Assembly: GCA_022865275.1 (NCBI GenBank)
Contig: JALIDQ010000001.1
Location: 1 to 51,141, forward strand
Reading direction: 5' to 3'
Source of the DNA: Candidatus Nanohalarchaeota archaeon QJJ-9
GTDB lineage: Archaea > Nanohalarchaeota > Nanosalinia > Nanosalinales > Nanoanaerosalinaceae
DNA: 51,141 bases
In this document: positions 9,341 to 50,164 of the stretch, piece after piece
How positions within the stretch are numbered: position 1 is the first letter of the stretch
Layout: each line of letters opens with the position of its first letter
Translations under genes and position numbers: made by a program
Notes under the pieces: model-generated
The model's database searches: none
Seen by the model: only the letters and a program-made list of their open reading frames with translations
What the model was told of the DNA's origin: nothing

Positions 9341-9774
9341 TTAGGATGTTTAACTCCAGAAAAGGGCAGTATTCTGTAATAGAGCAGGTGATACTTTTCG
9401 GGTTAGGCATAGCTGTCCTAACCGGATTCCTAACCACTTTCCAGAACTTTGGGGAGGAGGCTAAGCAGGAGGCTATGGACCGCCAGTCTCGACTGTTAGC
9501 GGAACTGGTCAGGATGAATATTGTTCACCTTGAATCGTTGGGAGAGAAGTCCAGTATAAGATTTTCTCTTCCAGAGAAGCTCGCAGGGGAGGGTTATAGG
9601 ATAAACCTTACAGATGACGGTGTAGCGGTCCAGGTCATAGGAACTGGTTCCAACTATCTTAAAGGGTGTGCCGGACTTGAGGATGAATACCGGTTCAATG
9701 GCTCTGTTACCAATATCTATAACAAAGGTGTATTAAAACTGGAGAACAATAAGATTGTTTTAGGGGCGCCATAA
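9337..9774 (+). CDS. Pilin-like protein (class III signal peptide)
   Basis: N-terminus MFNSRKG/QYSVIEQVILFGLGIAVLTGF, with an acidic residue early in the mature helix as in type IV pilins. Overlaps neighbouring genes at both ends. Confidence 0.6.
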   Translation: MIRMFNSRKGQYSVIEQVILFGLGIAVLTGFLTTFQNFGEEAKQEAMDRQSRLLAELVRMNIVHLESLGEKSSIRFSLPEKLAGEGYRINLTDDGVAVQVIGTGSNYLKGCAGLEDEYRFNGSVTNIYNKGVLKLENNKIVLGAP

Positions 9775-11561: not shown

Positions 11562-11569
11562 GTGGTTTG

Positions 11570-12454: not shown

Positions 12455-12500
12455 CTTTTTAGTATCAGGTATGGGAAGTATAATATGAGGAGAGAATGAG

Positions 12501-13415: not shown

Positions 13416-13419
13416 GAAG

Positions 13420-14259: not shown

Positions 14260-16418
14260 GGAAGGGTTATCTGCATGCGGTGGAGGGGGTTATAGCCAGC
14301 CTTTTAGCAGTGCTATACCTCGGAACGATTATATCTACCCCTCCCGCCACCGACTGGGAGAAAACCTCTCTCAACAAGCGTTCAGGCGATCTGCTTGGAG
14401 CGATGTCGGAGACAGGTGTTATCGACTATGCGGTACTGGAAGACGATTCTTCTATAGTACGGGGAACAAAGAATGTTCTTGGCTCTAATCTAGAATATTC
14501 TATGCATATCTCAGGCCTTCCGAAAAGGGATATGGAGATTTCTATGATACTGCCGCAGGAGGATGTTACTAGAGCTCCCTCCTTCAACGATTCGTATATA
14601 AACAGTAACTGGGCGGATCTAGGCCTTCCACCGTCAGAAGACGGTGCTGGATACCGTTCCGGAGAGATTATGGGTATAGATTTTGTTGTCTACGATCTTA
14701 TTGAGAACGGTGTAGCTGATTACAATGGGGTTAGCTTTGATATTAACAGAGACGGGGACTTTGGAGACACTGGGATAGACTTTGAGGAAGGTCCTTACCG
14801 TGCCAGGAAAAAGATAGACTGTCGTTCCACCTTCTGCCCTGATACTATAATAGGTTATATCGGTAAATCGCTTACTCTATACAATACCTCGGGAGAGCAG
14901 GAATACGCTCCCGGCCTTTCAGGAGTAGAGATTGGAGGTATTGATGTGGAGACCAGTATTATTCCTGAGGAGATCTACCCTGTTATCAACGTTTCCTCAA
15001 GCGATTTCTCGTATGAAGACGGTTACTGGGTAGCTGACAGGAATATGCAGGGGTTAAATGTAGATTTCAATATATCCGATTCTTCAGGTAATTCTACGCT
15101 CTATATTAATGATTCAGAGCATTTTAGAGGATCTTTTTACTCTGGAGACTCTGTGAGGGTTGCTGGAGGAATCTATTCGATAGAATCAGTTATGCCTCTA
15201 CACTTGAAACCTCAGACCCGGGTGGACTCGGATGTTCTGTTCCTAGAGAGACTGGAACCAGGTTATATAGACAACCATTCCTCTACTATTTACTCCACAC
15301 TGTCCAACGGAGGGACGATTATCGATATGTCTAACTGGACTGAGGAGGATTATCTAGGATCTTGTATGGAAAATCTTGGGATAGGTTGGAGAAACTTTCC
15401 TTACAGCTCTCCTGGAACTGGGTCGAGGTTTTATAGGGGTGAAGACTCTCCCGACTATATAAGGCAGTCTTTCAACAGTATGGGGATCGGATTGAATTCC
15501 AGCCTTTTCGAGGAGCATGGTTCGTATAGTATAGCGAACCTTACGCTTAAAGGCGAGGAGTTTTATGTCAATATAAGTTCCGGCGAGGTCTCTATTAATA
15601 GAACGAAGGAGTTTGATGAATGGTATTCACAGGGAGAAAGGTTGTTCCTTGCTGGCGAGTCTTACAGGATACAGCAGATACAGCCATATCCTTTTGTCCT
15701 GAATACAGGAGATGAATACCGTTTTAAGAATTATCCCGCATCAAACTTTACTGGTGAGACTGTATTAACGGTTGAAAAAGCGGTATGGAATGTTGAAGAG
15801 TCCAGCTACAATGCTACAGGTATGTTTGAATATTCAGGAGATGATTCAACTCTCCCTAACTCTAAATGCGGTAACCGCCGTGTAAATAAAAGCTTTAGCG
15901 TGGGAGAGAACACATTTAATGTTGTATTAACGGATAAAGAGCCTTGTGGAGATTTTGACTATGTCAATTTTGACTTTAACTCTAACGATGCCTACAACGA
16001 CTCCGAGGAGGATACTCCTGCAGGATTCGGTGCGGAAGGGATATACAGGAGGGGAGAAGAGGTGGTTATAGACGGGGAGCCGTATAGGATAGAACTGGGT
16101 AATGAAGTGGACTCTGATCCTTCCGGGGACTGGGTTTACCTTGAGAGAGAGGTGCCTAACCATGTTCCAGCTGCGGTCTGGCATTCTGGTGTGTTTAACG
16201 GTCGAGGAAACCTATTCCAAATGCCTGATGTTAAAATAGGTGATGACGGCATGTCTCTCCTAAAGTCTGTGATAGTCCGCGCGTCAGTTGAGCGTTACAG
16301 GTTTTCGCAGTCAAAGATATCTGGAGGTAACGCTATAGGACTGACCTATGCGGAGGAGCTTGACAACGAAGTCTATCTACCCTATACTATAGAATCTCTA
16401 TGGTGGTACGGTGAATAG
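14256..16418 (+). CDS. Large pilin-like/surface protein (class III signal peptide), 720 aa
   Basis: N-terminus MRKG/YLHAVEGVIASLLAVLYLGTII. Acidic, with many N-x-S/T sequons; no catalytic motifs recognised. Confidence 0.5.
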   Translation: MRKGYLHAVEGVIASLLAVLYLGTIISTPPATDWEKTSLNKRSGDLLGAMSETGVIDYAVLEDDSSIVRGTKNVLGSNLEYSMHISGLPKRDMEISMILPQEDVTRAPSFNDSYINSNWADLGLPPSEDGAGYRSGEIMGIDFVVYDLIENGVADYNGVSFDINRDGDFGDTGIDFEEGPYRARKKIDCRSTFCPDTIIGYIGKSLTLYNTSGEQEYAPGLSGVEIGGIDVETSIIPEEIYPVINVSSSDFSYEDGYWVADRNMQGLNVDFNISDSSGNSTLYINDSEHFRGSFYSGDSVRVAGGIYSIESVMPLHLKPQTRVDSDVLFLERLEPGYIDNHSSTIYSTLSNGGTIIDMSNWTEEDYLGSCMENLGIGWRNFPYSSPGTGSRFYRGEDSPDYIRQSFNSMGIGLNSSLFEEHGSYSIANLTLKGEEFYVNISSGEVSINRTKEFDEWYSQGERLFLAGESYRIQQIQPYPFVLNTGDEYRFKNYPASNFTGETVLTVEKAVWNVEESSYNATGMFEYSGDDSTLPNSKCGNRRVNKSFSVGENTFNVVLTDKEPCGDFDYVNFDFNSNDAYNDSEEDTPAGFGAEGIYRRGEEVVIDGEPYRIELGNEVDSDPSGDWVYLEREVPNHVPAAVWHSGVFNGRGNLFQMPDVKIGDDGMSLLKSVIVRASVERYRFSQSKISGGNAIGLTYAEELDNEVYLPYTIESLWWYGE

Positions 16419-25281: not shown

Positions 25282-25408
25282 GCCCCGTTAGCTCAGCTGG
25301 GAGAGCACGTCCTTGGTATCTCAGGACACACTCCGAACCCGATGCCAACGCGAGTTGAGTCTGAGAACAGAAAGGACGAGGTCCCGGGTTCGAATCTCGG
25401 ACGGGGCT
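25282..25408 (+). tRNA. tRNA-Thr (anticodon GGU) with 54-nt intron
   Basis: GCCCCGT-TA-GCTC-AGCTGGGA-GAGC-A-CGTCC-TTGGTA [intron 25319-25372] A-GGACG-AGGTC-CCGGG-TTCGAAT-CTCGG-ACGGGGC-T. Confidence 0.85.
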
Positions 25409-25467: not shown

Positions 25468-28400
25468 TTACGAAGTTACGCATGCTTTTTGTGATTTTTG
25501 GGATTCTCCTGCTTCGTTGAACGCGGCTATTCTGTAACAAGCTTTTTCTCCTTGTTCTAGGTTTTTGTCTATGAAGTTTGTGTTTCTTTGGCCTGTTCCT
25601 CCTACATTGTTTGATTGGAAGCTGTGGACTTTTTTCCAGGTGCCTGAGGAGTTGGTGTAGACGTTGAATCCGTCCTCCACAACAGAAGCATCCCTAAAGG
25701 TTAGGTTTATTCCTAGACCAACCTCGAAAGTAAAAGTATCGGAAGTATAGTTTCCTTTTCCGTCTGATACGTTTACGTACCAGTTGTAGGTTGTGTTTGC
25801 TTCTAGTCCTGTCCATGAGACGCTTGCTGAACCGCTTCCATTGATTTCTGTCTGTTTGGAGCCGATTTGCTCGTTGTTGTTTGCGTTGAAGAACCATGCG
25901 TCCATCGAATCACCGTCCGCATCCGAAACATTAACATCTAGATCTGCAACAGTCGAACCAAGAACCTTCCCGCCCGAAGGAGAAGGATTGGATACTGTAG
26001 GTAGTTTATTGACGTCATTAATCATCAACTTAAAGCTATCGATACTAGGAGAATGGGAATGTCCACTATCCGTTACAGAAAGGTTTGTTTCTATTTGGTA
26101 TCTGTAGCCGCCGGATAGATTGAAATCATTGTCCTTAAATGTGTTTAATCCGTCTGAAAGGCTTACTCCATCACTCTCTGAATGACTCCAGGATTCAATA
26201 CTCCCGTCATCATCCGTATCAACACCCAACCTAACCAAAGCCTTTTCACCATTACCTATAGAAGCATTAACCTTCAAACTGTTAACCTGCTGCTCAACAG
26301 AAGTTCCTGCATCCCAGATATTAGACCTCCAAAAACCCTTCTCAGAACCTTTGAAAAACTCAATCCTACCAGTAACCATCCTACAAGTATCCCCATTAGA
26401 AACCGTATTCCACATCCTAACCGAATCAAAACTGCTTGGAACAGTTTTAGAAGTATTTGAAGAATCAAAAACATACCACTCCTCCCCATCCGCACCAACA
26501 ACAGTCCCAACATCATCCTGAGACCAATCACTCTCCGCCCAAGCACTAGAACCCTCAGATTTATCCGTAAGAACATCAAAAGACTTAACCAAATTATCAT
26601 TCTCATCAAAGAAATCTACCGCAAGACCATCAGACTGAGCTGTATTACTATCAATCCTCAAAGGAGTAGTCCTCAAATACAACCTAAACCGTTCAGCACC
26701 CTGATAAGCCCCAGGAAAACCATATTGACCCTCAAGCCAATAACGCACACCCCTATTACTACTCCCACCATCCTGATTCCAGTAAAAAGAACCAGAACCC
26801 TCCTCAAAATAATAACTATCCGTAAAATAATCACCAGCATCCACACCATTAAGATTACGTAAATCCACCGGATAATTGGACAAACCATCCTGAGAATCAT
26901 GCGGAACAACAGTAACACGATCCAACCTCAAAGAACCCGCCTCAGTAGTAGTATTCGAAAAACTACCTAAACCCCAATCACCCCCCGAAACAACCCTCCA
27001 AACCTCCCCAGTCTCAACACGAAAACCACGCTCAGAAAGAGAAACAGTATCAGAACCATCAGAAACCACCACATACCAACTATAATCCGAAAAATCCTCC
27101 AAACCACTCCAAGTAACAGAAGCAGTACCACCAGAACTTACACCAGTAACCTTCTCAATCAACGAACCATCAGAAGCATCGTAGAACGAAACATTCATAT
27201 CCTCACCCTCCCTATGCTCCAAACTAACATTCAACTCAGGACTAGAAGTCTCCAAGACCTTACCATCCGCAGGACCATAACCCGCAACATCCAACCAACC
27301 ATCACGCGTAAACAACTCAAAACCACCAACACCCGGAGAATGAGAAAAATTACCATCAGTCACAGACAAATTAAACTCAGCCTGATAACGATAACCTGAA
27401 GAAAGATCAAAATCACCGCCTCCCAAACTATTCAAACCATCAGAAACACTTACACCACCACCCTCAGAATGACTCCAGGTATCAATACTCCCGTCATCAT
27501 CCTCATCAACACCCAAACGAACCCTAACAGACTCATTCACACCAACAGAAGCATTAACCTCCAAACCATCAACCTGCTGCTTAACAGAAGTCCCAGCATC
27601 CCAAACCCTACTACTCCAAAAACCAGAATCAATAGAACTGTTCTCAAAACTATCAGGCCTAGTACGATTATACAACTGCCCAATCTCACTCTCCGACAAA
27701 GCCCGGTCGTATATGCGGACCTCATCTATTTTGCCGTTGAAATAATCTGCCCATCCATCGCCCATACCTCCTTGGTCGTTCCCTAGTGAATCATAATAGC
27801 TTCCGGTGGAAGGACTTGAGCTGAAACTTGCCACTTCTTGACTGTTTTTGTAAATCGTAAATGTGGAACCATCTTCTACTGCTGTTAAGTGAGTCCAAGT
27901 ATCAGCTGAGATAGTAGTTAAATCGCTATGGTAGTTGCCGTTTTGCCATGTTGATATGTAACCATTTGAGTTCTCTGCAATCCAGAATGGAAGGAAGCTG
28001 GCAGAGCCCCTCAAAGCTATAACTCTCTGAGAACTAGAGACAGTATCAGGATTCAACCATAAGGACACTGTCTTAGGCGAAGGATTAGGCAATAGACTTG
28101 GAAGATCTGTATAATCATCGCTTCCATCAAAACTCAGAGCGTTCCCATACATTCCGTCTGTCCAGATGGCTCCGTTGATGGTTCCGTCGTTGTTGTTTCC
28201 TGATATGTCGTATGCTGTGGTTCCTGTTCCTTCGTCCATGGACCACCATCCGACTGCATCCTTACCTGTTAGGCTGACTTGGCTGTTGTTCGCAACAGTA
28301 CGAATGTCACGACCTAGCTCCCAGTCCAACCAATCGTTTTGAGAACTAACTGTCCAGAGTTCTTTGTTCTCGGTTCTAAAGCTTCTTGGTGATAGGTTAG

Positions 28401-29574
28401 CGGTGTTAGTTCCGTCTGTGACTTTGATGTACCATGTGTAGTTTGTAAAGTCCTGCAGGCTAGACCAGGTAATAGAAGCAGTAGATCCAGAACTTACACC
28501 CGTAACTTTCTCTATTAACGAGTCGTCGGAAGCATCGTAGAACGACACGTTCATATTTTCGCTATTGTTATGTTCTAAGGTAGCATTCAATACCGGGTTA
28601 ACAGTATCCAAGACTTTACCATCTTCTGGAGATAGTGAAATATTCGACAACCATCCTTCATGGGTTTCAAGCTCGAAAGAGCTAATAGAAGGTGTATGGG
28701 AGGTGTAACCATCAGTGATACTTAGATTATACTCTATTTTATACCGGTAGCCCGGAGGTAAACCAAAATCAGAACCATCCAACATATTCGAACCATCAGA
28801 AACACTTACTCCGTCTCCTTCTGAATGGCTCCAGGAATCTATTGTACCGTCATCATCCGTATCAACACCTAAACGAACCTTAACAGACTCATTCACACCA
28901 ACAGAAGCATTAATACGGAGATAATCTATCTTTTGAAAAGATACAGCGTCTGTATCCCAGACTGGAGAAGACCATAAACCATCAGAATAGTATGAACTGG
29001 TTCTTAAATTATCAACAGAAAAATCTATAATCTGGCCACCATAATCTGATCCAACAAATTTCCCATAAAACTTAACTGTATGTGTTCCCGAATAACTAGA
29101 AATATTTACAGATACCGGGGTTTTTGTCAGTCCGTCATTAGTAGTGACCCAGACAGTACTTCCATCAATTCTTAACTGAGCCTCATCATCGGAACCGCCA
29201 TCAAGATCCCTAACATTTATATCAAAGTAAAGAGTACCGCCATCAAGATTAAAATCCTTATACATCTCCGGCTCCGGAGTATTACCTTCATCACCTCCTA
29301 AATTTAGGGCGCCAGTACCTTCAGTATACCAAGTCGAATCATTCTGAGCCTCAGGCCCGCTCCAACCACTTTCACAGGAATCTCTAGGAACTTCCAGAGT
29401 TAGAGTAGTATTATAGTTAGTCCGGTTAAAATATCCTTCCCCCCATTCAGTTTGATTGTTAACGTTCCAGTTTGTTGCTGTTACACTTGTAGAGAAAAGA
29501 GGTAGTAGTATAAGGAAGGATAATAGAAGGAACGAACTCTTCTTGCTTCCTAACTTTTTTCTTGTGCTGGCCAA
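25468..29574 (-). CDS. Giant secreted adhesin-like protein (1368 aa): signal peptide, three tandem modules of about 205 aa, LamG domain, FN3-like C-terminal module
   Basis: TTG start with AGGTGG 6 nt upstream and signal-like LLLSFLILLPLFSTSVTA. LamG-like WWSMDEGTGTTAYDISGNNNDGTINGA...IDEVRIYDRALSESEI. Repeats carry RLGVDxDDDGxIxxWSHSE. Many N-x-S/T sequons. Confidence 0.85.
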   Translation of the reverse strand: MASTRKKLGSKKSSFLLLSFLILLPLFSTSVTATNWNVNNQTEWGEGYFNRTNYNTTLTLEVPRDSCESGWSGPEAQNDSTWYTEGTGALNLGGDEGNTPEPEMYKDFNLDGGTLYFDINVRDLDGGSDDEAQLRIDGSTVWVTTNDGLTKTPVSVNISSYSGTHTVKFYGKFVGSDYGGQIIDFSVDNLRTSSYYSDGLWSSPVWDTDAVSFQKIDYLRINASVGVNESVKVRLGVDTDDDGTIDSWSHSEGDGVSVSDGSNMLDGSDFGLPPGYRYKIEYNLSITDGYTSHTPSISSFELETHEGWLSNISLSPEDGKVLDTVNPVLNATLEHNNSENMNVSFYDASDDSLIEKVTGVSSGSTASITWSSLQDFTNYTWYIKVTDGTNTANLSPRSFRTENKELWTVSSQNDWLDWELGRDIRTVANNSQVSLTGKDAVGWWSMDEGTGTTAYDISGNNNDGTINGAIWTDGMYGNALSFDGSDDYTDLPSLLPNPSPKTVSLWLNPDTVSSSQRVIALRGSASFLPFWIAENSNGYISTWQNGNYHSDLTTISADTWTHLTAVEDGSTFTIYKNSQEVASFSSSPSTGSYYDSLGNDQGGMGDGWADYFNGKIDEVRIYDRALSESEIGQLYNRTRPDSFENSSIDSGFWSSRVWDAGTSVKQQVDGLEVNASVGVNESVRVRLGVDEDDDGSIDTWSHSEGGGVSVSDGLNSLGGGDFDLSSGYRYQAEFNLSVTDGNFSHSPGVGGFELFTRDGWLDVAGYGPADGKVLETSSPELNVSLEHREGEDMNVSFYDASDGSLIEKVTGVSSGGTASVTWSGLEDFSDYSWYVVVSDGSDTVSLSERGFRVETGEVWRVVSGGDWGLGSFSNTTTEAGSLRLDRVTVVPHDSQDGLSNYPVDLRNLNGVDAGDYFTDSYYFEEGSGSFYWNQDGGSSNRGVRYWLEGQYGFPGAYQGAERFRLYLRTTPLRIDSNTAQSDGLAVDFFDENDNLVKSFDVLTDKSEGSSAWAESDWSQDDVGTVVGADGEEWYVFDSSNTSKTVPSSFDSVRMWNTVSNGDTCRMVTGRIEFFKGSEKGFWRSNIWDAGTSVEQQVNSLKVNASIGNGEKALVRLGVDTDDDGSIESWSHSESDGVSLSDGLNTFKDNDFNLSGGYRYQIETNLSVTDSGHSHSPSIDSFKLMINDVNKLPTVSNPSPSGGKVLGSTVADLDVNVSDADGDSMDAWFFNANNNEQIGSKQTEINGSGSASVSWTGLEANTTYNWYVNVSDGKGNYTSDTFTFEVGLGINLTFRDASVVEDGFNVYTNSSGTWKKVHSFQSNNVGGTGQRNTNFIDKNLEQGEKACYRIAAFNEAGESQKSQKACVTS

Positions 29575-34543: not shown

Positions 34544-34810
34544 TCACTCGTAAGCGTTATCCCTCTTCATTACGGCAAGTACTTGTATCTCCTTACTATC
34601 CTGTTCAAGGTCTATGAACACTCGGTAGTCTCCTACTCGCAGCCTATAGACCTTCTCCGTATCTATCCACTTTAGAAAGTATTCAGGAGATATGTTCTTA
34701 GACTTCATCCTGATTTCCCTAAGCTTGTTTCTAATTCTCTTCTGAACAGATTCTTCTATACTATCCAAATCGTCTCGTGCTGTAGGAGATAAAACCACTT
34801 TCCATTGCAT
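34544..34810 (-). CDS. relE: RelE/ParE-family type II toxin
   Basis: 88 aa with YRLRVGDYRVFIDL...ILAVMKRDNAYE, a typical RelE/ParE C-terminal pattern; 4 nt downstream of the RHH gene. Confidence 0.75.
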   Translation of the reverse strand: MQWKVVLSPTARDDLDSIEESVQKRIRNKLREIRMKSKNISPEYFLKWIDTEKVYRLRVGDYRVFIDLEQDSKEIQVLAVMKRDNAYE

Positions 34811-34814
34811 TTAT

Positions 34815-35027
34815 CTAGCCTAGTTCTTCTCCCTTAGCCTTCTCTATTTCCTTCCTCGCATTCTTTATCTTTTCCTTTGCCTGCTCTGTAAGTTCTGGCT
34901 CAAGCTCTTTCCTCACAAGGTCTCTGAGCAGTTCTCCTTTGGATGTATAACCTTTCTCCTCTACAAGCTTTTCTATCATCTTCACCTGCTTTTCCGGGGC
35001 TTTGAACGATACGGTCTTGGTCGCCAT
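34815..35027 (-). CDS. Ribbon-helix-helix (CopG-like) antitoxin
   Basis: KTVSFKAPEKQVKMIEKLVEEKGYTSKGELLRDLV beta-strand/helix pattern of RHH proteins; 70 aa. Confidence 0.7.
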   Translation of the reverse strand: MATKTVSFKAPEKQVKMIEKLVEEKGYTSKGELLRDLVRKELEPELTEQAKEKIKNARKEIEKAKGEELG

Positions 35028-35359: not shown

Positions 35360-36142
35360 TTAGGTTTCGTAGTCTGCCTGGAACTGGTTCAGCTCTGCCT
35401 GGGACTGATCTAAGGACTCGTAGGAGGGGATTACGTCTTCCATATCCACTTCTACGAACTCTAGGTTTTTCTTTTCTAGGTATTCTTTGACGTTATCCGA
35501 GCATTTTGGCGCGACTAGGATTCCTCTTATTTCTCTTCCAGGATATTCTTCTTCTATCTCGTCTACGTAACGACCTAGCTGGAGGACTGAGTTGTGGTCG
35601 GGATTTCTCTTGACTTCTATAACGACTAGTTGGTTGTCTTTGCTCCTTGCGAATACGTCTATAAATCCTGCGTCTGTCTCTTTTTCTCTTTCTACTATTT
35701 TGAGGTCTTCTTCTACTAGTTCTGGGTTTTCTTCTATTGCTTCGTGTATATCTATTTCGTGGCCTTTGATTTTGAGGTCTGACTTGTCTACTAGCTGGGT
35801 TATATGAAGCATCTCTATCTCTCCGAATCTGATTTCTACGGTTTCTTCTGGATTGTTTCTTTTTGATTCGAGGATGAGTTCTTCTTTGTCAGCTCTAAGA
35901 TTGAACTGGTCTGTATCTGGCTGCCAGTTCTTGGGCTGGTAGTTTTCTGGTCCATGGACTAGTAATGAGTTGTCCTGTTTAACTATAACTAGTCTTTCTC
36001 CTCTATCGAGCTTTGACTTGGTTCTTCCTTGGTAGTTTACTGAGCAGAGTCCTGTTAAGGTTACTGTGTAGTTCCTTCTGAGGTATTCTTCGAGTAGTTC
36101 TTTTGCTTCTGTTTTGCTGGGAGATTCTACTAGTTTTTCCAT
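35360..36142 (-). CDS. nucS: Endonuclease NucS (EndoMS)
   Basis: C-terminal RecB-like core GFIDVFARSKDNQLVVIEVKRNPDHNSVLQLGRYV and an N-terminal half-barrel region (RLVIVKQDNSLLVHGP); 260 aa. Confidence 0.85.
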   Translation of the reverse strand: MEKLVESPSKTEAKELLEEYLRRNYTVTLTGLCSVNYQGRTKSKLDRGERLVIVKQDNSLLVHGPENYQPKNWQPDTDQFNLRADKEELILESKRNNPEETVEIRFGEIEMLHITQLVDKSDLKIKGHEIDIHEAIEENPELVEEDLKIVEREKETDAGFIDVFARSKDNQLVVIEVKRNPDHNSVLQLGRYVDEIEEEYPGREIRGILVAPKCSDNVKEYLEKKNLEFVEVDMEDVIPSYESLDQSQAELNQFQADYET

Positions 36143-41115: not shown

Positions 41116-41220
41116 CCCTCCTTAGCTCAGCCTGGCAGAGCGTCCGCCTGTAGCACCAGCCGGATGCTATCCACTGTTTCAGCCAGCGGATCGTCCCCCG
41201 TTCAAATCGGGGAGGAGGGA
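41116..41220 (+). tRNA. tRNA-Tyr (anticodon GUA) with 31-nt intron
   Basis: CCCTCCT-TA-GCTC-AGCCTGGCA-GAGC-G-TCCGC-CTGTAG [intron 41154-41184] A-GCGGA-TCGTC-CCCCG-TTCAAAT-CGGGG-AGGAGGG-A. Has the C1:G72 pair characteristic of archaeal tRNA-Tyr. Confidence 0.9.
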
Positions 41221-41267
41221 TTTCTATTTTTTCCTTTGATTTTTTCTCGTTTTACAGGTTTTTCAGA

Positions 41268-41336
41268 GATTTGAACGACCTTGATTCTCTTCGAGAACCG
41301 TGGAGTGCAAATCGGGGAGGAGGGATTTCTATTTTT
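41268..41336 (+). repeat. Orphan copy of the tRNA-Tyr 3' end preceded by an inverted T-loop fragment and a TTCTC-TTC-GAGAA hairpin
   Basis: 29-nt exact direct repeat caaatcggggaggagggatttctattttt at 41203-41231 and 41308-41336. Upstream lie GATTTGAAC (inverted partner of GTGCAAATC) and TTCTCTTCGAGAA (41285-41297). Confidence 0.65.
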
Positions 41337-43644: not shown

Positions 43645-43760
43645 TGCTGGCGGCCAGAGCGAGGGGGCAACACCTGTACCCATCCCGAACACAGAAGTAA
43701 AGTCCCTCAGCGATCTGGCCGGTACTGCCGGAAGGCGGGAAAACCAGGACGCTGCCAGCC
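43645..43760 (+). rRNA. rrf: 5S ribosomal RNA (not linked to 16S/23S in this window)
   Basis: GCTGGCGGCCAGAGCGAGGGGGCAACACCTGTACCCATCCCGAACACAGAAGTAAAGTCCCTCAGCG...GGACGCTGCCAGCC. Contains the conserved GTACCCATCCCGAACAC core, a terminal helix GCTGGC/GCCAGC, and a following TTTT. Confidence 0.95.
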
Positions 43761-44424: not shown

Positions 44425-44499
44425 GCCGAGATGGTGTAGTCCGGCCCATCATACCAGCCTGTCACGCTGGTGACGCGGGTTCAAATCCCGCTCTCGGCG
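44425..44499 (+). tRNA. tRNA-Asp (anticodon GUC), intronless
   Basis: Acceptor GCCGAGA/TCTCGGC, GGTGTAGTCCGGCCCATCAT D-region, anticodon arm CCAGC-CTGTCAC-GCTGG, T-arm GCGGG-TTCAAAT-CCCGC, discriminator G. Confidence 0.9.
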
Positions 44500-44774
44500 T
44501 CACTTCGTTCCTTGAAGAGTTTTTCAGGGGTTACAAGCTCTACTTCTCTTTCTTTCAGTTCTTCTGTCTTCTGGAAATTATAGTTGAGTGGAAAAATCTT
44601 ATGATCAGCAGCGGTCTGTACCCGTAAAATTCCTTGTCCAGACACCCAGTTAGTCTCATCAATTTTTTCTTCAACTATATAAGCATCATCTGAGAGCAGG
44701 GTGTCCTTCCAGCTTGAGTAGGTGTTTTCCCTGGACTGACAGTAGCCTCTGTACTGTTGACATACGGTTATCAT
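44481..44774 (-). CDS. Hypothetical protein whose last codons are antisense to the tRNA-Asp 3' end
   Basis: 97-aa ORF; the stop and final 6 codons overlap tRNA-Asp (44481-44499). A truncated, start-less homologue of its C-terminus (EELKEREIDLATPEKLLKDEINAESGV) follows the second att copy at about 46146-46250. Confidence 0.4.
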   Translation of the reverse strand: MITVCQQYRGYCQSRENTYSSWKDTLLSDDAYIVEEKIDETNWVSGQGILRVQTAADHKIFPLNYNFQKTEELKEREVELVTPEKLFKERSDAESGI

Positions 44775-45074: not shown

Positions 45075-45374
45075 TTGGAACTTTATCTTCACTTGGAGAA
45101 CAAGATAAGTATGGGAAAACAGATAAAGCATAACTGGTTCAAGAGACCAAAGGAAGACCAGAAAAAAGACCCTTTGCCAGATAGGAAAATAGGAGCGGAA
45201 TTTCCAAATAAGGAGAGGATTTATTCTCTTCTATATAGCATAGAGGAAGAAAGAGATAATTTGGTTTACGGAAGAGCGGAAGAGGAACAGACTAAAAAAG
45301 TGCTTAAATCTTTCCAAGAGTTGAAATCCATCTTAATTGAGAGAATAGAGAAAGAAGGTGTCGAACTTGAATAA
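45075..45374 (+). CDS. Hypothetical protein (possibly 5'-truncated)
   Basis: The frame is open from 44937 (KKITTIEEHKRKIKEHLDEINEALDIG...), but the first start-type codon is TTG 45075. Overlaps the nucleotidyltransferase start by 17 nt. Confidence 0.35.
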   Translation: MELYLHLENKISMGKQIKHNWFKRPKEDQKKDPLPDRKIGAEFPNKERIYSLLYSIEEERDNLVYGRAEEEQTKKVLKSFQELKSILIERIEKEGVELE

Positions 45375-45984
45375 ATACTCTCTGATAAGTTACGCAATAG
45401 AATATATATCCTTTATGTTGAGGAGCCAGGAATTAGAAAAGGATAATATCAAGAGTGTGATCTTGTTTGGATCAGTGGCGAGAGGAGATTTTGATAAGGA
45501 TAGTGATATTGACATCTTTATTGATCTTTATGATCTGGAAGATAGGGATAAAATTAAGGAAGAGGCCGAGCGAAGGCTTAAGAACTTTTACAAGTCCGAT
45601 AGTTTCCATAAATGGGAGCTGAGAGGGATTGATAACGAGATAAATTTGAAGATTGGAGATCTGGATAACTGGAAGTTAAAAGATTCAATTATAAGCGATG
45701 GAATTTCGCTCTACGGTTCCTATAAAGAAGTTCCTGAAGGAGATAGTTTTATCCTGTTCACCTTTGAACCGATCAAGCCTGTTAAAAAACGGAACAGAGT
45801 AATCAGAAATCTATTTGGAAGAAGCGATTACCCTTCCCAAGGTCTGGTTGAAGAAATGAATGGTGAAAAACTGACTTCCAGAAGTTTTGTAGTTCCTAAG
45901 AGGAACATGGAAGAAGTAAAGAAAGTACTGGATGATAACGATGTAGATTACTCTTTATACGAATTATACTCTTCACAGTTTTAG
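45358..45984 (+). CDS. Nucleotidyltransferase-domain protein (MNT-like)
   Basis: VILFGSVARGDFDKDSDIDIFI minimal-NTase signature (GS...D.D), followed by a C-terminal region of about 130 aa of unknown family. Confidence 0.75.
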   Translation: MSNLNKYSLISYAIEYISFMLRSQELEKDNIKSVILFGSVARGDFDKDSDIDIFIDLYDLEDRDKIKEEAERRLKNFYKSDSFHKWELRGIDNEINLKIGDLDNWKLKDSIISDGISLYGSYKEVPEGDSFILFTFEPIKPVKKRNRVIRNLFGRSDYPSQGLVEEMNGEKLTSRSFVVPKRNMEEVKKVLDDNDVDYSLYELYSSQF

Positions 45985-46144
45985 AGAAGCTTGAGGAAAG
46001 GGGGTCTAGTGAGTGGAAAGGGAAGTGGTCTGGTCAGGTATTATGTAGCCAAAGAGTAGAACTATGAACCGATTCTCCCCCCCAAATGAGTCAATTCCTG
46101 AGTCAGTTCTATTACTGATGCCTTCTCTTCGAGAAGTCTTGTAT

Positions 46145-46231
46145 CAAACCCCGCTCTCGGCGTTGATTTCATCCTTGAGAAGCTTTTCAGGGGTTGCAAG
46201 GTCTATTTCTCTTTCTTTCAGTTCTTCTGTG
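46145..46231 (+). repeat. att-like copy 2: tRNA-Asp 3' end plus about 70 nt of flanking arm
   Basis: An 87-nt alignment with 44482-44568 shows 14 mismatches by hand count (about 84 percent identity). It starts with caaaccccgctctcggcg versus caaatcccgctctcggcg. Confidence 0.7.
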
Positions 46232-47718
46232 AACCTGTTTTTGGAGATGCGTTTTTATTTAACTTTTCTTTCGTTGTTTCTCCACTGCAAGACTTTACCT
46301 GCTTTTTCTCTGATAGGGGCCCCAACGGTCGGAAAGAAAGAGTGTATTTGGTTCCACTTTTTCCCCTGAATTTACTGTATCTGTTTCCAACTTATCGTAA
46401 AGTTTTTATATACAAGATTCCAATAGATTCTGTATGGGTCTGGAAGATGAGATAGTTCGGCAGAATCCTCAGTGGAGAGGTGAAAAGCTTTCCAGGGGAA
46501 GTATCTGTAGGGAAAAGGAGGAGGAGATCAGAGAGGAGTTAGATGAGGATATTGTGACCGCTATAACAGGGATGAGAAGGGTGGGGAAGACGACTTTGAT
46601 GCAGAGGATTATAGATAGTTTAGAAGAGAGAGGTGAAAGAACATTCTACTATTCTTTCGATATAGACAAGGTTGAGGTAAGAGAACTATTGGAGACTTTC
46701 TTCCAGGAGATCGAGAACGAAAGCCCGGAACAAGCCGGTAGCGTGTACATCTTCCTGGACGAGGTGCAGAAAATCGAGGGCTGGAGCGACCATGTAAAGG
46801 CCTACCACGACCGTTACGAAAATCTGAAGTTTTTCGTGACCGGCTCTTCATCCGCAAATATCAGAAAAGGCGGTGGAGAAAGCCTGGTCGGAAGGATCAG
46901 CATCTACAGTTTAACGTCTTTCACATTCAGAGAGTTCCTGAGGTACCGCGGAATCAGTATACCGGAGAAAGACTTCGAAAAACTGGCTCTGCCTGAAAAC
47001 TCGAACCGGATAAAAGCAAAGCTACCGGAGTATCTGGAGACAGGAGGCTTCCCTGAGCTGATGGATAAGGAAGAGACTGTAAGGAGGGAAAGGCTGAACG
47101 ACATACTAGACCTGACGCTTTACAGGGATATTGTGGAGCTCTTTGGAGTAGGAAGACCAGAACTGCTCGAGGCAATATTCAAGTCGATAACTGAGACCAG
47201 CGGAAACACGGTAAACTACAATAAGCTCGGTAAAAACCTGGATGCGCAGTATAAAACAGTCAGAAAGTATGTTGATGCGCTGGAACAATCATTTCTGATA
47301 GAAAAAAGCCGGAGACTACAGAACAACAAGCTACAGGAATACAAGAAAAGGCCGAAAATCTATGCGGGAGAACACAGCTTCTGCTCACTTCAAGGAACAA
47401 AGAAAGGCCTGAAAGCAGAGACAGCAGCCTACAACCACCTCAAAACAAAAGGAGAAACAGGTTACTGGCGCAAAAAACAGGACGAAGTCGATATAATCCT
47501 CAAGCAAGGTGAGAATCTGAAGGCGTTTGAGGTCAAATACAGGAACCAGGAAGGAAAAACAGAGTTCAACAGCTTTAAAAAAGAGTGCCCGGAAGCGGAA
47601 ACATTCCAGATAACCAAAAACACGCTGGACAGAGACAAAGACAAAATACCGCTCTGGCTACTACTTGTACATATCTAAAGAAACCGCTGCAGACCTCTGC
47701 AAGCCTAGATATTTATGT
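46163..47718. mobile_element. Putative integrated-element remnant 2 at tRNA-Asp (no integrase present)
   Basis: Bounded by att-like copy 2 and copy 3 (47719-47736). Cargo is the AAA_14/DUF4143-type ATPase. Confidence 0.35.
46434..47678 (+). CDS. AAA_14/DUF4143-type ATPase
   Basis: Walker A ITGMRRVGKTTLMQ, Walker B VYIFLDEVQKIEGW, and a C-terminal DUF4143-like region with a nuclease-like tail (EVDIILK...FEVKY). Confidence 0.8.
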   Translation: MGLEDEIVRQNPQWRGEKLSRGSICREKEEEIREELDEDIVTAITGMRRVGKTTLMQRIIDSLEERGERTFYYSFDIDKVEVRELLETFFQEIENESPEQAGSVYIFLDEVQKIEGWSDHVKAYHDRYENLKFFVTGSSSANIRKGGGESLVGRISIYSLTSFTFREFLRYRGISIPEKDFEKLALPENSNRIKAKLPEYLETGGFPELMDKEETVRRERLNDILDLTLYRDIVELFGVGRPELLEAIFKSITETSGNTVNYNKLGKNLDAQYKTVRKYVDALEQSFLIEKSRRLQNNKLQEYKKRPKIYAGEHSFCSLQGTKKGLKAETAAYNHLKTKGETGYWRKKQDEVDIILKQGENLKAFEVKYRNQEGKTEFNSFKKECPEAETFQITKNTLDRDKDKIPLWLLLVHI

Positions 47719-47736: not shown

Positions 47737-47799
47737 CTTTTTTTTTGGGGAAAAAGATTAAATATAGGAGTTTTTCATCTTATTTTGTTTGTGATATCA

Positions 47800-49506
47800 A
47801 TGGATTTTGATATCTCTAAGATGCTTTTGGTTTCAGCGATATTAGTGTTTCTATGCTCCAGTGCAGCTGCTTTTGCAGGCGGTGACGGCTCCTCTTCTGA
47901 TCCCTATGAGATTTCTAACTGTACAGAACTCCAGGATATGCAGAACGATTTAGATGCTCATTATGAGTTGGTGGATGATGTTAACTGTTCTAATACTTCT
48001 AGTTGGAACGGTGGCTCCGGATTCAACCCTATAGGTAGTAGTGGCAGTCGGTTCTACGGTTCTTTGAATGGGCAAAACCACATCGTTGACCAGCTATATA
48101 TTAACCGCGGCCACGACCATGTTGGGCTTATTGGATACACTCAGTATTGCGAGGTTAAAAATATCGGTTTGACGAATGTAGATATTACCGGCAAAGGTGA
48201 TACAGGTGGTGCTTTGGGAGTGAATAATAGGGGCACTATTTCTAACATTTACACCACAGGCAATGTAGTCGGCGAACATCGGGTGGGTGGTTTGGTCGGA
48301 ACCATCTACGGTAGTGGTGTTTATTCTAGTTTTTCTACGGGTAGTGTTTCCGGCGACTCTAGTGTGGGTGGTTTGGTCGGACAAAACAGCGGCAGTGTTT
48401 CTGATAGTTATGCGGTGGGTAGTTTGGTTGGATACAATGATGGAGGTAGTGTTGATGGTTCTGCTTTGTCTACTTCTGAGATGCAGGGTTCGGCTGCTGA
48501 AAGTAATATGAGTAGTTTGGATTTCACCAGTAAGTGGACTACAGTTTTATCTTCTGATTCTGATGCGACTTCGGATGGTTATCCGATTCTCCAGGGCTCG
48601 GATAGGCAGAGTCAGCTTGAGGCGCAGGGTATTTATACTGTACCGGATTCTTCTTCTCCTGTTTTTTCTGGTGTTTATGATGATTCTGGTGGGTCTGTGT
48701 TTGTAGGGGCGGTTGTTAATGTTTCTGTGTATTGGGAGGATTCTGTTTCTAATCTTTCGGAAGGATTTTTCAAGCATAATGGTTCGGGTTCTTGGTCTGT
48801 CTCGGATTCTGTTTCTTTTAACGGTACGAATGAGTCTTGGTATAATGTTTCTATTAATACTTCGGATCTTGGTGGTAGGACTTTGTGTTGGGTTCAGGAG
48901 GTGAATGATACGGTTGGGAATATGGATAGTTCGATGGATGTATCTGAGAATTGTTTTGATGTTAGGGAATATGGTTCTACTATTTCGATTTTGGGTGAGG
49001 AGCCTGTTGGTGGTTCTGTTGTGGACAGCGATACAGAAATTTCTGTTGAGGTCTTTGATAGTCAGGCTTCTACTTTAGATGTGTGGTTTTTTGATGGTTC
49101 TGGGGGTTTTTTGGGTTCTGATTTGGGTGTTGTGAATGGTTCTCGAGCTTCTTGGTTTTGGGATGGTTTGGAGGGTAATTCTTCCTATAGCTGGTTTGTG
49201 AATGTTTCGAATGGTAAAGGTAATTATACTTCTGAGGTTTTTGGTTTTGAGACTGGTTTGGGGGTTGAGTTGTCTTTTGAGGATGTTTCGGATCGTGAGT
49301 CTGGTTTTAATGTGTATAGTAATGCTTCGGGTTCTTGGGAGAGGGTTCATAGTTTTGAGTCTCAGAATGTTGGTGGTACTGGGCGGAGGTCTGTTAGTTT
49401 TATTGATGAGACTTTGTCTGAGGAGAAATATGCGTGTTATAGTGTTGCTGCGTTTAATGGGGCTGGTGAGTCTGGGCGGTCGCAGGAGGCGTGTTTGAGT
49501 CCTTAA
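47800..49506 (+). CDS. Secreted GLUG-motif adhesin-like protein with a C-terminal module shared with 25468-29574
   Basis: Signal peptide MDFDISKMLLVSAILVFLCSSAAAFA. GLUG-type repeats RVGGLVGTIYG, SSVGGLVGQNSG and VGSLVGYNDG. The C-terminal 170 aa are homologous to the giant protein C-terminus. The track start at 47665 reads through the att copy and is rejected. Confidence 0.8.
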   Translation: MDFDISKMLLVSAILVFLCSSAAAFAGGDGSSSDPYEISNCTELQDMQNDLDAHYELVDDVNCSNTSSWNGGSGFNPIGSSGSRFYGSLNGQNHIVDQLYINRGHDHVGLIGYTQYCEVKNIGLTNVDITGKGDTGGALGVNNRGTISNIYTTGNVVGEHRVGGLVGTIYGSGVYSSFSTGSVSGDSSVGGLVGQNSGSVSDSYAVGSLVGYNDGGSVDGSALSTSEMQGSAAESNMSSLDFTSKWTTVLSSDSDATSDGYPILQGSDRQSQLEAQGIYTVPDSSSPVFSGVYDDSGGSVFVGAVVNVSVYWEDSVSNLSEGFFKHNGSGSWSVSDSVSFNGTNESWYNVSINTSDLGGRTLCWVQEVNDTVGNMDSSMDVSENCFDVREYGSTISILGEEPVGGSVVDSDTEISVEVFDSQASTLDVWFFDGSGGFLGSDLGVVNGSRASWFWDGLEGNSSYSWFVNVSNGKGNYTSEVFGFETGLGVELSFEDVSDRESGFNVYSNASGSWERVHSFESQNVGGTGRRSVSFIDETLSEEKYACYSVAAFNGAGESGRSQEACLSP

Positions 49507-49537: not shown

Positions 49538-50164
49538 CTACGGTTCTAGCAGGTTAACCACGCCTTTAAAGTGTTTGTTGCTTTCCTCTCCTTCCTGCTC
49601 TTCTAGAGGCTTCATCGCGTCTATTGCTTTGTCCAGCTGTTTTATGTAGTCTCTTACTGACGGAGAGACGTCGTACTCCCACCGCTTGTCCTTTACGATT
49701 TTCTGTCTTATCTCTGTGGAGGAGAGTGTTATCTCCCATCCTTGTTCTCTCATTTTTTTGTATGGTTTTTCGACTTCTCTGGGCTGGTATATCACGCCTA
49801 TGTCTATGCCTGAGGTTTTGTATAGCTGTTTTGCTGTTTCTGCTATGTTTTTCCATTTCTTTTCTCTTGTGAAGTAGGTGAAGCTTCCTCCCAGTCTTTT
49901 CAACGCGTCTTTCTGGAAGGGGTTGTCTGCTATGATAGGTTCTACTCGGTAGTTTTCTGTTTTGTAGTCTTTGAATGCGAGTTCTATCATTTTTTCTTTT
50001 TCTTCTCCTGTGAACGGGTTTTTGGGTGTTCTTTCGTGGTTGTCCTGTGTTATCACGTATACCTGGTCCGCGCCGTATTCCTCTGCGAAGTATTTTACCA
50101 TTGAGCCGTGCTGGTTTCCGAACGGTGCGAATCTCCCTGAGGTTGCTATTATTTTTTCTGTCAT
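49538..50164 (-). CDS. Cytidylyltransferase-fold nucleotidyltransferase (NMN adenylyltransferase-like)
   Basis: TSGRFAPFGNQHG (a degenerate GRFxPxHxGH motif) and LSSTEIRQKI (ISSTxIR-like motif). Confidence 0.55.
   Translation of the reverse strand: MTEKIIATSGRFAPFGNQHGSMVKYFAEEYGADQVYVITQDNHERTPKNPFTGEEKEKMIELAFKDYKTENYRVEPIIADNPFQKDALKRLGGSFTYFTREKKWKNIAETAKQLYKTSGIDIGVIYQPREVEKPYKKMREQGWEITLSSTEIRQKIVKDKRWEYDVSPSVRDYIKQLDKAIDAMKPLEEQEGEESNKHFKGVVNLLEP

Follow-up and report, generated by a model that had tools for sequence, protein, structure and literature searches.

Segments of G- and T-ending codons in two paralogous surface-protein genes of a nanohalarchaeal contig

Replication-associated asymmetry, as described for Borrelia codon usage, the vertebrate mitochondrial heavy strand and the CPR Microgenomates (PMC7143001), makes the leading strand rich in G+T. 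Here we describe two blocks of unusual codon usage in a 51,141-nt stretch of Candidatus Nanohalarchaeota archaeon QJJ-9 (contig JALIDQ010000001.1; the whole stretch is referred to as the window). The blocks share with replication asymmetry the axis (G+T versus A+C), C>T and A>G as the inferred changes, the strongest effect at synonymous sites and a drag on amino-acid usage. Unlike it, they occupy 1.1-1.5 kb inside two genes, change within a few codons and keep coding-strand polarity on both DNA strands, with a G+T fraction at third codon positions (K3) of 0.92-0.93 compared with 0.59 and 0.32 for the window's plus- and minus-strand genes. Transcription-associated asymmetry, with C>T changes on the strand that is not transcribed, and G-rich, R-loop-prone regions of the switch-like type resemble the blocks in having polarity by coding strand and a non-template strand that is G-rich and C-poor. 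The blocks, however, are not gene-wide, have sharp internal borders and have lost as much A as C.

Neisseria pilE/pilS, Borrelia vlsE and mosaic adhesins offer a different parallel, as they too combine paralogous surface proteins, internal repeats, sharp segments and DNA relatives elsewhere. Unlike pilE/pilS and vlsE, the window has no silent-cassette array and no near-identical donor, and its segments are marked by a codon alphabet, not just by sequence divergence. NucS/EndoMS repair provides a biochemical ground for a mutational axis of G,T against A,C, since the enzyme cuts G/T, G/G and T/T mismatches and not A/C, A/A or C/C, and the spectrum left on the leading strand by repair of the NucS type is T/G-enriching (PMC6159521). 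NucS is encoded in the window, but it acts genome-wide, unlike the blocks, and nothing ties it to them. Mutation clusters on single-stranded DNA, as in kataegis or the repeat-induced point mutation of fungi, are likewise strand-coordinated tracts with sharp ends, with repeated sequences among the targets. These are C>T-only bursts that lower G+C and strike all codon positions, whereas in the blocks G+C and the protein are kept, A>G is as strong as C>T and second positions are nearly untouched. Nor do the blocks show the adenine-only changes of diversity-generating retroelements, with third-position C at 0.035 and A at 0.046.

Composition and border of the block in the GLUG-type gene

The features of the first gene and its surroundings are as follows.

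47,797-49,506, plus strand: gene in the ORF list for a GLUG-type secreted surface protein of 569 aa, with a signal peptide, GLUG-like beta-helix repeats, a cap region (TSEMQG...DGYPILQ) and Ig-like domains
47,797-48,393, plus strand: ordinarily coded 5' third (K3 0.61, third-position C 0.26)
48,394-49,503, plus strand: G/T-coded block of 370 codons, up to the stop codon
48,232-48,636, plus strand: segment across the block border with DNA-level relatives elsewhere (blastn, dN/dS)
48,985-49,503, plus strand: G/T-coded C-terminal tail domain, paralogous to the tail of a 1368-aa protein
49,538-50,164, minus strand: convergent cytidylyltransferase-like gene adjoining the GLUG gene downstream

The gene likely starts at ATG 47,797 rather than at TTG 47,665; the public gene call (P0001) opens with MDFDISKM. 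Pfam Glug (PF07581) scored 19.0 bits on the protein (gathering cut-off 20.5), Peptidase_M26_N was likewise sub-threshold (17 vs 27.7), and a PDB search gave a weak match to IgA1 protease (7uvk/7uvl, E 0.01-0.03). Faint Glug matches are also present in close homologues. A word-indexed protein search suggested that the block was an orphan, which was overturned by a full HMMER search returning 587 homologues of the protein. The single-sequence AlphaFold model was uninformative (mean pLDDT 36), and no conclusion is drawn from it.

Change-point analysis placed one point in this gene, at nt 48,394 (2-lnL support interval 48,391-48,451), with the switch in codon usage completed over ~20 codons, which excludes a gradual change. 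K3 is 0.61 before this point and 0.92 after it (T 0.63, G 0.29, A 0.046, C 0.035), and third-position C falls from 0.26 to 0.04. The preliminary description of this locus, based on hand counts that proved exact (3 C in 48,901-48,960 against 15 C in 47,881-47,940), had proposed a stepwise C-depleted block. The step is upheld, and the block is real and reaches the stop codon, although its start had been set at 48,300, ~95 nt too early. "C-depleted", however, is a misnomer: adenine loss is as thorough as cytosine loss, so that wobble positions are left with essentially G and T only, while G+C is unchanged (0.43 inside, 0.45 and 0.42 outside). Position 1 reaches a G+T of 0.73, and the block has a GC skew of +0.46 and an AT skew of -0.38. 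In the 5' third of the gene, G/T-ending and A/C-ending codons alternate in short runs.

We held the protein fixed and sampled synonymous codons according to their frequencies in the other plus-strand genes. Under this control the block should contain 208 ± 8 C and contains 128 (z = -9.7). The deficit lies at third positions (C: 13 observed, 86 expected; A: 17 observed, 70 expected; K3 z-score +13.8), whereas C at positions 1 and 2 is not depleted (115 vs 122 expected). Amino-acid composition is thus excluded as the cause of the third-position bias, and the bias acts at the nucleotide level, not the amino-acid level. Neither is it a wobble-only bias with constant amino-acid usage. TTG accounts for 75% of Leu codons in the blocks vs 10% elsewhere, position-1 G+T is 0.69-0.73 vs 0.55, and replacement sites are shifted likewise (Lys, Ile and Asn down; Gly, Val and Ser up); amino-acid usage is also shifted in comparison with 14 homologues. 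Second codon positions are almost unaffected and keep A and C. By chance, 12-14 in-frame stops would be expected in the blocks (~12 in the GLUG block, with codon positions taken as independent), and the frame is open, indicating that the GLUG block is constrained coding sequence under continuous selection on the protein. Avoidance of mRNA structure was rejected as a cause because predicted folding energies per 120 nt are the same in blocks (-24 to -25 kcal/mol) and flanks (-24 to -26 kcal/mol). No flanking repeats or site-specific inversion were found at the block borders.

The minus-strand paralogue and the strand bias of the window

The preliminary description had also proposed that the pattern recurs in a paralogue on the other strand and in a different segment, which holds, and the features concerned are these.

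25,468-29,574, minus strand: gene for a 1368-aa surface protein with a LamG domain, a triplicate module and a tail domain as in the GLUG protein
26,197-27,705, minus strand: G/T-coded block, codons 624-1126
25,471-25,902, minus strand: tail with mostly A/C-ending codons, codons 1225-1368, sense K3 0.22
35,360-36,142, minus strand: NucS/EndoMS mismatch endonuclease gene (Pfam NucS_N and NucS_C), given for context only

The 1368-aa block has a sense K3 of 0.93, equivalent to 0.07 on the plus strand. Both large blocks are nearly alike in composition (T 0.63-0.64, G 0.29), with a GC skew of +0.46 to +0.51 and a density of GGG runs ~3 times that seen in the 5' part of the 1368-aa gene. The start of the 1368-aa block is fixed to within 2 codons and lies in the last conserved motif of the LamG domain; its end falls within copy 3 of the module, in the conserved motif LGVDxDDDGSI. 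No repeat coincides with the border at 27,705, and the border at codon ~1120-1127 sits at a 21-23 nt exact repeat common to the three modules.

The depleted part of the GLUG gene had been equated with the homologue of the 1368-aa tail. This is correct for 48,985-49,503, but the block extends upstream to 48,394. The 1368-aa tail had been called not depleted, which is true and understates the matter, since it carries the opposite bias (A+C at 78% of sense third positions), in agreement with other minus-strand genes of the window. The two tails are identical at 88 of 172 residues, and where they share a residue their codons differ at the third position by A>G/T and C>T. The tail domain exists in two forms, one rich in Lys/Asn/Thr and the other in Gly/Val/Ser/Glu.

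Both paralogues are mosaics with differing segments, as had been suggested and as both change points and runs tests now indicate. In runs tests of G,T against A,C third positions, the GLUG gene gave z = -7.4 and the 1368-aa gene z = -12.8; all of the remaining 36 of 38 ORFs had |z| <= 2.1, so that patchiness is limited to these two genes. Their non-block parts are patchy too (z -2.8, -5.9, -3.1), and the 1368-aa gene as a whole is a mosaic of G/T-coded and A/C-coded tracts. Its module occurs at codons ~193-415, 645-867 and 1078-1288. From module copy 1 to copy 2, A>G outnumbers G>A by 24 to 1 at position 1; the three modules cannot be polarised reliably by parsimony, as the biased copies converge. 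G/T-coded tracts of copies 1 and 3 are weakly closer to copy 2 (aa identity 0.69 vs 0.52, p = 0.018), and no window-level correlation was found in the modules between G/T coding and copy-2 similarity. Given this weak signal, intragenic conversion is not demonstrated.

Among the 36 ordinary ORFs, mean sense K3 is 0.59 for plus-strand and 0.32 for minus-strand genes (p = 3e-5); the plus strand is thus G+T rich at third positions regardless of gene orientation. Polarity follows the DNA strand in these ORFs and fails to do so in the 1368-aa block. Intergenic G+T is 0.49-0.60, intergenic DNA and unconserved ORFs together stay at 0.5-0.8, and no ordinary gene or intergenic region of the window comes near block composition. 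The highest value among ordinary genes is that of the cytidylyltransferase-like gene, where only 5 of 209 sense codons end in T, so that plus-strand third-position A is nearly absent and plus-strand K3 reaches 0.87 per 100 codons. In the other direction, no 100-codon window in the other 36 ORFs has a plus-strand K3 <0.30. In the minus-strand paralogue, too, the G/T state follows the gene's coding strand, so that the ordinary replication-type bias between the DNA strands of the window cannot explain the blocks, and as a sole cause it was rejected on the opposite-strand block, the intergenic composition and the maximum reached in other ORFs.

Relatives of the block in other genomes

In 14 tail homologues from other organisms, the G+T of positions 1 and 2 implied by the residues is 0.39-0.50; it is 0.49 for the 1368-aa tail and 0.62 for the GLUG tail, which is an amino-acid outlier within its own family. 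This comparison of residues shows the G/T-shifted state to be derived relative to the protein family.

At the DNA level, a JGI contig (L026) is 73% identical over 409 nt across the GLUG block border, and a second sequence (L024, annotated Candidatus Nanohalobium sp.) is 76% identical over 271 nt (dS 0.48-0.60, dN 0.25-0.34, dN/dS 0.4-0.7). These relatives match the part upstream of the block plus the block start, in genomes of differing base composition. L026 has its own G/T-only run at codons 242-345 (K3 0.90; T 63, G 31, C 6, A 4), beginning at the position homologous to 48,394, while its neighbouring genes have a K3 of 0.50 and a third-position T (T3) of 0.14-0.20 in a genome without strand bias. 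Since the border is common to L026, it is an old feature of the gene family, and the junction did not arise recently in this genome. Relative to their neighbours, family genes of several genomes are also T3-enriched.

The rare A/C-ending codons of the window recur in these two relatives in 13 of 18 and 8 of 12 cases, compared with 2-5 of 11-14 in four distant homologues and 11 of 17 in a fifth (L028). In the 5' third, the codon-by-codon G,T/A,C pattern agrees with the L026 homologue at 0.72 vs 0.58 expected (p = 4e-7). Agreement of third bases with L024 and L026 could partly reflect convergence of two G/T-coded sequences, which leaves the shared exception codons as the sole argument for common descent. 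At four-fold sites, T<->G differences equal transitions (6 vs 6 and 4 vs 4).

Of the GLUG block, the closest DNA relatives span just the first ~250 nt; of the 1368-aa block they span nothing. For neither block did the window, or protein, viral, plasmid, phage and metagenome-pattern searches, yield a donor or near-identical paralogue, and a viral, plasmid or phage origin was rejected for want of relatives there. A degenerate DNA pattern for the conserved module retrieved two chance matches without homology from metagenomes. Aenigmarchaeota relatives, found through LysRS, showed mild strand bias only and no patchy genes.

Possible origins of the G/T-coded blocks

The reading that we favour, at a probability of roughly 0.45, is that the blocks are recombining, horizontally shared adhesin cassettes shaped by long A/C-to-G/T pressure on the coding strand under purifying selection. 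Each block would be a cassette that evolved separately and was joined to sequence with ordinary coding. Its coding strand would for a long time have received substitutions almost only from A/C to G/T (C>T and A>G, with four-fold sites going mostly to T), while purifying selection kept the protein foldable. The outcome would be that every free site is now G or T: wobble bases, the first bases of Leu codons where a change is synonymous, and replacement sites that tolerate it (Lys>Arg/Glu, Ile>Val, Asn>Asp/Ser/Gly). Such keto-coded segments are present in both window paralogues irrespective of DNA strand, and in related adhesin genes elsewhere, including at least one genome of a halophilic DPANN archaeon. 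We infer that the parts were joined by recombination: homologous exchange among paralogues as well as among genomes could yield the codon-sharp borders and the mosaic. The change points, the patchiness and the DNA relatives covering part of a gene are what sharp segments with separate histories would leave. For the pressure we can offer a guess, that is, prolonged single-strandedness of the coding strand through transcription, R-loops or a single-stranded vehicle, where G:T-type mispairs or deamination might arise and then be fixed. The preliminary description had named cassette exchange and localised mutation as candidates. The former is strengthened by 73-76% identical DNA in two genomes and by the like start of the L026 run; the latter, on present data, is indistinguishable from the inheritance or transfer of an already biased cassette.

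If the blocks are mutational, nature has recorded in them an unusually pure spectrum, specific to one strand and acting on chosen segments of genes, in organisms so far beyond genetic handling; they also show how much of a protein can be re-written by mutation pressure alone. If they are selected, they point to a new constraint on codon choice in secreted proteins. Either way, a G/T-only codon alphabet is a simple alignment-free tracer of adhesin cassettes between paralogues and genomes, and such adhesins probably mediate host attachment in host-dependent archaea.

Ongoing mutagenesis of the coding strand in place is the strongest competitor to shared cassettes, albeit an unlikely one. Here the non-template strand would be single-stranded through heavy transcription or R-loops and would suffer deamination (C>U, A>hypoxanthine) and G oxidation; R-loops stabilised by G-rich, C-poor RNA would make the process self-reinforcing as the GC skew grows. 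Two blocks on opposite DNA strands with like polarity on their own coding strand and near-identical composition fit this well, as do the GC skew, the dense GGG runs and the T3 enrichment of family genes in several genomes. The block lengths are also within the size range of R-loops. A transcription effect, however, should span the whole gene and affect the 5' end most, whereas the first ~200 (199) codons of the GLUG gene and the first 623 of the 1368-aa gene are ordinary, with a border sharp to ~2 codons. Other genes of the window are unaffected, with no sense G+T excess after correction for DNA strand (about -0.035, estimated from K3 values). Tracts of opposite polarity, 8-25 codons long, alternate within one gene, and L026 has the matching border in another genome.

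Less probable still is a segment-targeted process, hitherto undescribed, by which halophilic DPANN archaea convert A/C to G/T on the coding strand of adhesin cassettes. Candidates would be synthesis of one strand that is error-prone or goes unrepaired, or deamination of single strands linked with recombination. Such a process, if true, would re-code cassettes, re-shape surface chemistry (fewer Lys/Asn/Ile, more Gly/Val/Ser/Glu) and tag cassettes circulating between genomes.

We regard selection for G/U-ending codons as similarly doubtful. It could act through translation tuning of secreted beta-rich domains, where NNU/NNG codons, decoded by wobble or through separate C34 tRNAs, could make synthesis slower or adjust its pace, or through some property of G+U-rich mRNA. 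The retention of the pattern in three lineages at a dS of about 0.5 and in differing genomic backgrounds is compatible with it, as are the frequency of T<->G among the few four-fold differences and the use of codons rare elsewhere in the window (TTG, ATT, GGT). Selection at the wobble level does not predict, however, that first positions and the amino-acid sequence have also moved. Moreover, a CARDB protein, a 758-aa LamG protein and pilus-operon proteins, all secreted and beta-rich, are ordinarily coded, the homologous tail of the paralogue functions with the opposite codon set, and block mRNA has a folding energy like that of its flanks.

Ordinary leading/lagging-strand bias, made extreme in weakly constrained genes, is improbable, although it may contribute to the GLUG block. 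The window does have a clear DNA-strand bias, the convergent gene downstream of the GLUG block is itself at a plus-strand K3 of 0.87, and NucS-type repair could supply a T/G-enriching leading-strand spectrum (PMC6159521). Against it, the 1368-aa block is reversed on the DNA, intergenic DNA and unconserved ORFs are far less biased, the step sits inside a gene and not at an origin or terminus, and L026 shows a like run in a genome lacking strand bias.

We give equally little credence to a dedicated diversification system acting on adhesin genes, be it a retroelement of the diversity-generating type or a hypermutator of the deaminase type. Diversification of surface proteins by retroelements is abundant in DPANN archaea, the targets here are surface adhesins, and the dN/dS of 0.4-0.7 against L024 and L026 is high for a structural protein. 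Yet the 51 kb contain no reverse transcriptase, deaminase or recombinase gene (Pfam, ORFs of at least 150 aa) and no template/variable repeat pair. The changes are not adenine-specific, with C lost equally and a direction towards G/T, and the constant G+C is unlike C>T-only hypermutation. Synonymous sites are hit most, which suggests slow accumulation under selection and not bursts.

An assembly or sequencing artefact (a strain chimera or damaged DNA) is the least credible explanation: the window is a single metagenomic contig and the border at codon ~1120-1127 does sit at a repeat of the three modules, but the bias respects the reading frame with A and C retained at second positions, both frames, of 1368 and 569 codons, are open, no repeat lies at the 27,705 border, and L026, an independent assembly from another sample, has a like run and border.

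G/T-coded blocks in two paralogous surface-protein genes

The preliminary description had reported a C-depleted block in the 3' part of the GLUG gene, a GLUG-type surface-protein gene. Its hand counts of C were exact on recount, but A is depleted too, so that third codon positions of the block are nearly all G or T (G/T-coded). A second such block lies in a paralogue; the tails of the two proteins have 88 of 172 residues in common.

47797-49506, plus strand: GLUG gene, 569 aa; best start ATG 47797, in agreement with the public gene call; stop codon 49504-49506
48394-49503, plus strand: G/T-coded block of the GLUG gene
25468-29574, minus strand: 1368-aa gene, paralogue of the GLUG gene
26197-27705, minus strand: G/T-coded block of the 1368-aa gene, codons 624-1126

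Third positions of the GLUG gene shift from A 0.13, C 0.26, G 0.16 and T 0.45 before the block to A 0.046, C 0.035, G 0.29 and T 0.63 within it, while G+C stays at 0.43 (GC skew +0.46, AT skew -0.38). A gradual change and an effect of amino-acid composition had both been named as findings that would count against the description, and neither holds. Maximum likelihood places the change point at nt 48,394 (support 48,391-48,451). Expected counts come from sampling synonymous codons for the unchanged protein at the usage of the other plus-strand genes: the block contains 13 third-position C against 86 expected and 17 third-position A against 70 expected. Total C is 128 against 208 expected (z = -9.7), and C at positions 1 and 2 is 115 against 122 expected.

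In the 1368-aa gene, the fraction of G+T at third codon positions of the coding strand (sense K3) is 0.93 in the block, compared with 0.54 before and 0.36 after it. The block starts in the last conserved LamG motif, fixed to ±2 codons, and ends within the most conserved motif of the third copy of a module of about 220 residues (FWSSxVWD...LGVDxDDDGSI...GYRY...Ig-like repeat). The three copies are spaced 1356 and 1287 nt apart and share exact matches of 33, 23 and 21 nt; the first half of the module had no homologues in a word-indexed protein search. Relative to copy 1, the G/T-coded copy 2 shows 24 A>G and one G>A changes at first positions, and 49 A>G/T and 34 C>T changes at third positions, with four in reverse. 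The paralogous tails encode the same residues with complementary codons (GGT/GGA, TTG/CTA, AAT/AAC, GAG/GAA).

The bias thus works on nucleotides and not solely on the wobble base. Inside the blocks, Leu is encoded by TTG in 75% of cases (10% in ordinary genes), ATT replaces ATA for Ile and GGT replaces GGA for Gly, and first-position G+T reaches 0.69-0.73 versus 0.55. The amino acids follow, with Lys falling from 5.5% to 1-2%, Ile from 6.5% to 1.8%, and Gly, Val, Ser and Trp higher. The reading frame is open across the blocks where position-specific composition predicts 12-14 stops, and therefore the change built up while selection acted continuously on the protein. The G/T-only wobble alphabet in 48394-49503 also leaves long stop-free stretches in antisense and shifted frames, such as ORFs 49075-49350 (minus) and 49202-49498 (plus); these are by-products of composition and not evidence of overlapping genes.

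The blocks against the strand bias of the window

On the one contig analysed, ordinary genes have a mean sense K3 of 0.59 on the plus strand (27 genes) and 0.32 on the minus strand (9 genes; p = 3e-5); silent sites of the plus strand are therefore rich in G+T in either gene orientation. The bias is uneven along the window: 0.7-0.9 for 34-44 kb and for 48.4-51 kb, but about 0.5 for 3.5-7.3 kb and for 30-34 kb; intergenic G+T is 0.49-0.60. This DNA-strand effect fits a leading-strand bias, as well as the T/G-enriching spectrum of repair by NucS-type enzymes, which cleave only G/T, G/G and T/T mismatches (PMC6159521).

The blocks go with the coding strand or with segment history, not with the replication strand, because the background is modest and the block of the 1368-aa gene is opposite to it in sign and far out of range. 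Plus-strand K3 per 100-codon window never exceeds 0.87 or falls below 0.30 in other ORFs, whereas it is 0.07 in that block. The A/C-coded tail of the same gene (sense K3 0.22) is inside the range of other minus-strand genes. Patchiness by a runs test is confined to the GLUG gene (z = -7.4) and the 1368-aa gene (z = -12.8), with |z| ≤ 2.1 in all other ORFs, and the non-block parts of both genes are fine-scale mosaics too (z = -2.8, -5.9 and -3.1). The adjoining cytidylyltransferase-like gene (49538-50164, minus) has a pattern unlike that of the block: only 5 of 209 codons end in T (A 98, C 62, G 44), such that A, and not C, is eliminated from plus-strand third positions.

Homologues, shared history and origin of the pressure

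In a full HMMER search the GLUG block has 587 homologues. Both window tails were aligned with fourteen homologous tails of other organisms, and the G+T at codon positions 1 and 2 implied by the residues is 0.39-0.50 in these outgroups, 0.49 in the 1368-aa tail and 0.62 in the GLUG tail. Asn, Lys, Thr, Gln, Ile, His and Pro together make up 15% of the GLUG tail versus 31-46% in the outgroups. G/T coding is the derived condition. G/T coding was not seen in the distant homologues L001, L003, L025, L027 and L028 (DNA of other genomes), nor in Asgard or Thermoplasmatota proteins with the same Ig-like repeat. The distant GLUG+LamG homologue on L027 (P0100) lies in a region (1-14283) with GC3 of about 0.9, many small ORFs and a resolvase, which may be a haloarchaeal provirus or plasmid.

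In two homologous genes the similarity is high enough for synonymous sites to be informative; their DNA matches are limited to the border and the initial ~250 nt of the GLUG block. L026, a JGI metagenome contig, matches at 73% identity across 409 nt (window 48,232-48,636; dS 0.48, dN 0.34), and L024, annotated as Candidatus Nanohalobium sp., at 76% across 271 nt (dS 0.60, dN 0.25). The L026 gene has a G/T-only run at codons 242-345 (K3 0.90; T 63, G 31, C 6, A 4) compared with 0.58 in its remainder, and the run starts at the position homologous to the window border, directly after the last GLUG repeat. The G,T or A,C state agrees between the two genes at 72% of 243 codons versus 58% expected (p = 4e-7). 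The rare A/C-ending codons of the window are the same codons in L026 at 13 of 18 sites and in L024 at 8 of 12, while four of five distant homologues keep 2-5 of 11-14 and L028 keeps 11 of 17. The border at 48,394 therefore predates the split of these sequences. Genes beside the L026 homologue have K3 0.50 and GC3 0.71, and a G/T-coded cassette thus occurs in genomes differing in base composition, as horizontal exchange or active maintenance would predict. T3 is 0.44 across the L026 family gene (2-2296) and 0.14-0.20 in its neighbours (2337-6073; GC3 about 0.7). The family genes of L024 and L025 share the T-rich tendency more weakly, and thus these genes look compositionally foreign in several genomes.

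We conclude firmly that the blocks are segment-specific, that family members have inherited or share them, and that they were produced by a directional A/C>G/T process, or constraint, acting on coding-strand nucleotides and filtered by protein function. We favour cassettes of separate history joined by recombination, since the borders are codon-sharp, tracts alternate at fine scale, only two genes, paralogous adhesins rich in repeats, are affected, and DNA similarity crosses genomes. Selection for G/U-ending codons is possible, given that the state persists in three lineages, but it leaves the first-position and amino-acid shifts unexplained, other secreted proteins are ordinarily coded, and the paralogous tail functions with the opposite codon set.

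The origin of the A/C>G/T pressure is the weak part of the cassette interpretation, with three candidates. The coding strand might be single-stranded during transcription or in R-loops; the blocks are G-rich and C-poor and their G runs are dense. The segments might have resided in a vehicle replicating via single-stranded DNA. Finally, one strand might have been synthesised without NucS-type correction of dominant G:T-type mispairs, which would account for the constant G+C. Neither the window nor the searched collections yielded a donor copy, a reverse transcriptase, a deaminase or a recombinase.

We found no literature describing G/T-only codon blocks within surface-protein genes of archaea or DPANN; the nearest reports concern genome-wide strand disparity in small-genome bacteria (PMC7143001) and NucS mutation spectra (PMC6159521). 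The nearest known kinds are strand-asymmetric composition and mosaic adhesin genes, and there is a real chance that the blocks mark a new targeted process.

Genomic setting and neighbouring features

The window is ordinary chromosomal DNA from a small archaeon and encodes, among others:

thermosome
type IV pilus-like operon
RFC, both subunits
class I LysRS and a Trp/Tyr-type synthetase
NucS, family-4 UDG and RsmB
several tRNAs, probably intron-bearing
43646-43760, plus strand: stand-alone 5S rRNA gene (78 bits); the window lacks 16S and 23S rRNA genes

The LysRS is 60-63% identical to that of 'Candidatus Aenigmatarchaeota' bins from soda-lake sediment, and the annotated sources of homologues of both surface proteins are Nanohaloarchaeota archaeon QJJ-9 and Candidatus Nanohalobium sp.; a DPANN archaeon of halophilic or haloalkaliphilic habit is thus the probable organism.

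Four Rfam tRNA matches of 94-185 nt (1971-2064, 2947-3109, 4650-4834 and 25282-25408) are absent from the ARAGORN calls, probably owing to introns; one of these matches is separated by 60 nt from the 3' end of the 1368-aa gene. ARAGORN also calls a tRNA-SeC (tca) at 41143-41220, which Rfam does not report at its gathering score. A second copy of the 3' end of this tRNA (41200-41231 / 41305-41336, 32 nt, 97% identity) occurs 105 nt downstream, where the UDG gene ORF begins, and the repeat looks like an integration-site duplication.

Immediately before the GLUG gene, the two copies of an 87-nt direct repeat (85% identity; 44481-44567 / 46144-46230) flank an MNT-type nucleotidyltransferase gene (45358-45984), and the next gene, a DUF4143 AAA ATPase (46434-47678), has an atypical silent-site composition (K3 0.45). 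This region may be a recent defence or toxin-antitoxin-like insert. Two small adjoining ORFs of 88 and 70 aa at 34544-35027 (minus) resemble a RelE/ParE-type toxin and a ribbon-helix-helix antitoxin, and their silent-site composition is neutral whereas that of their neighbours is strongly biased.
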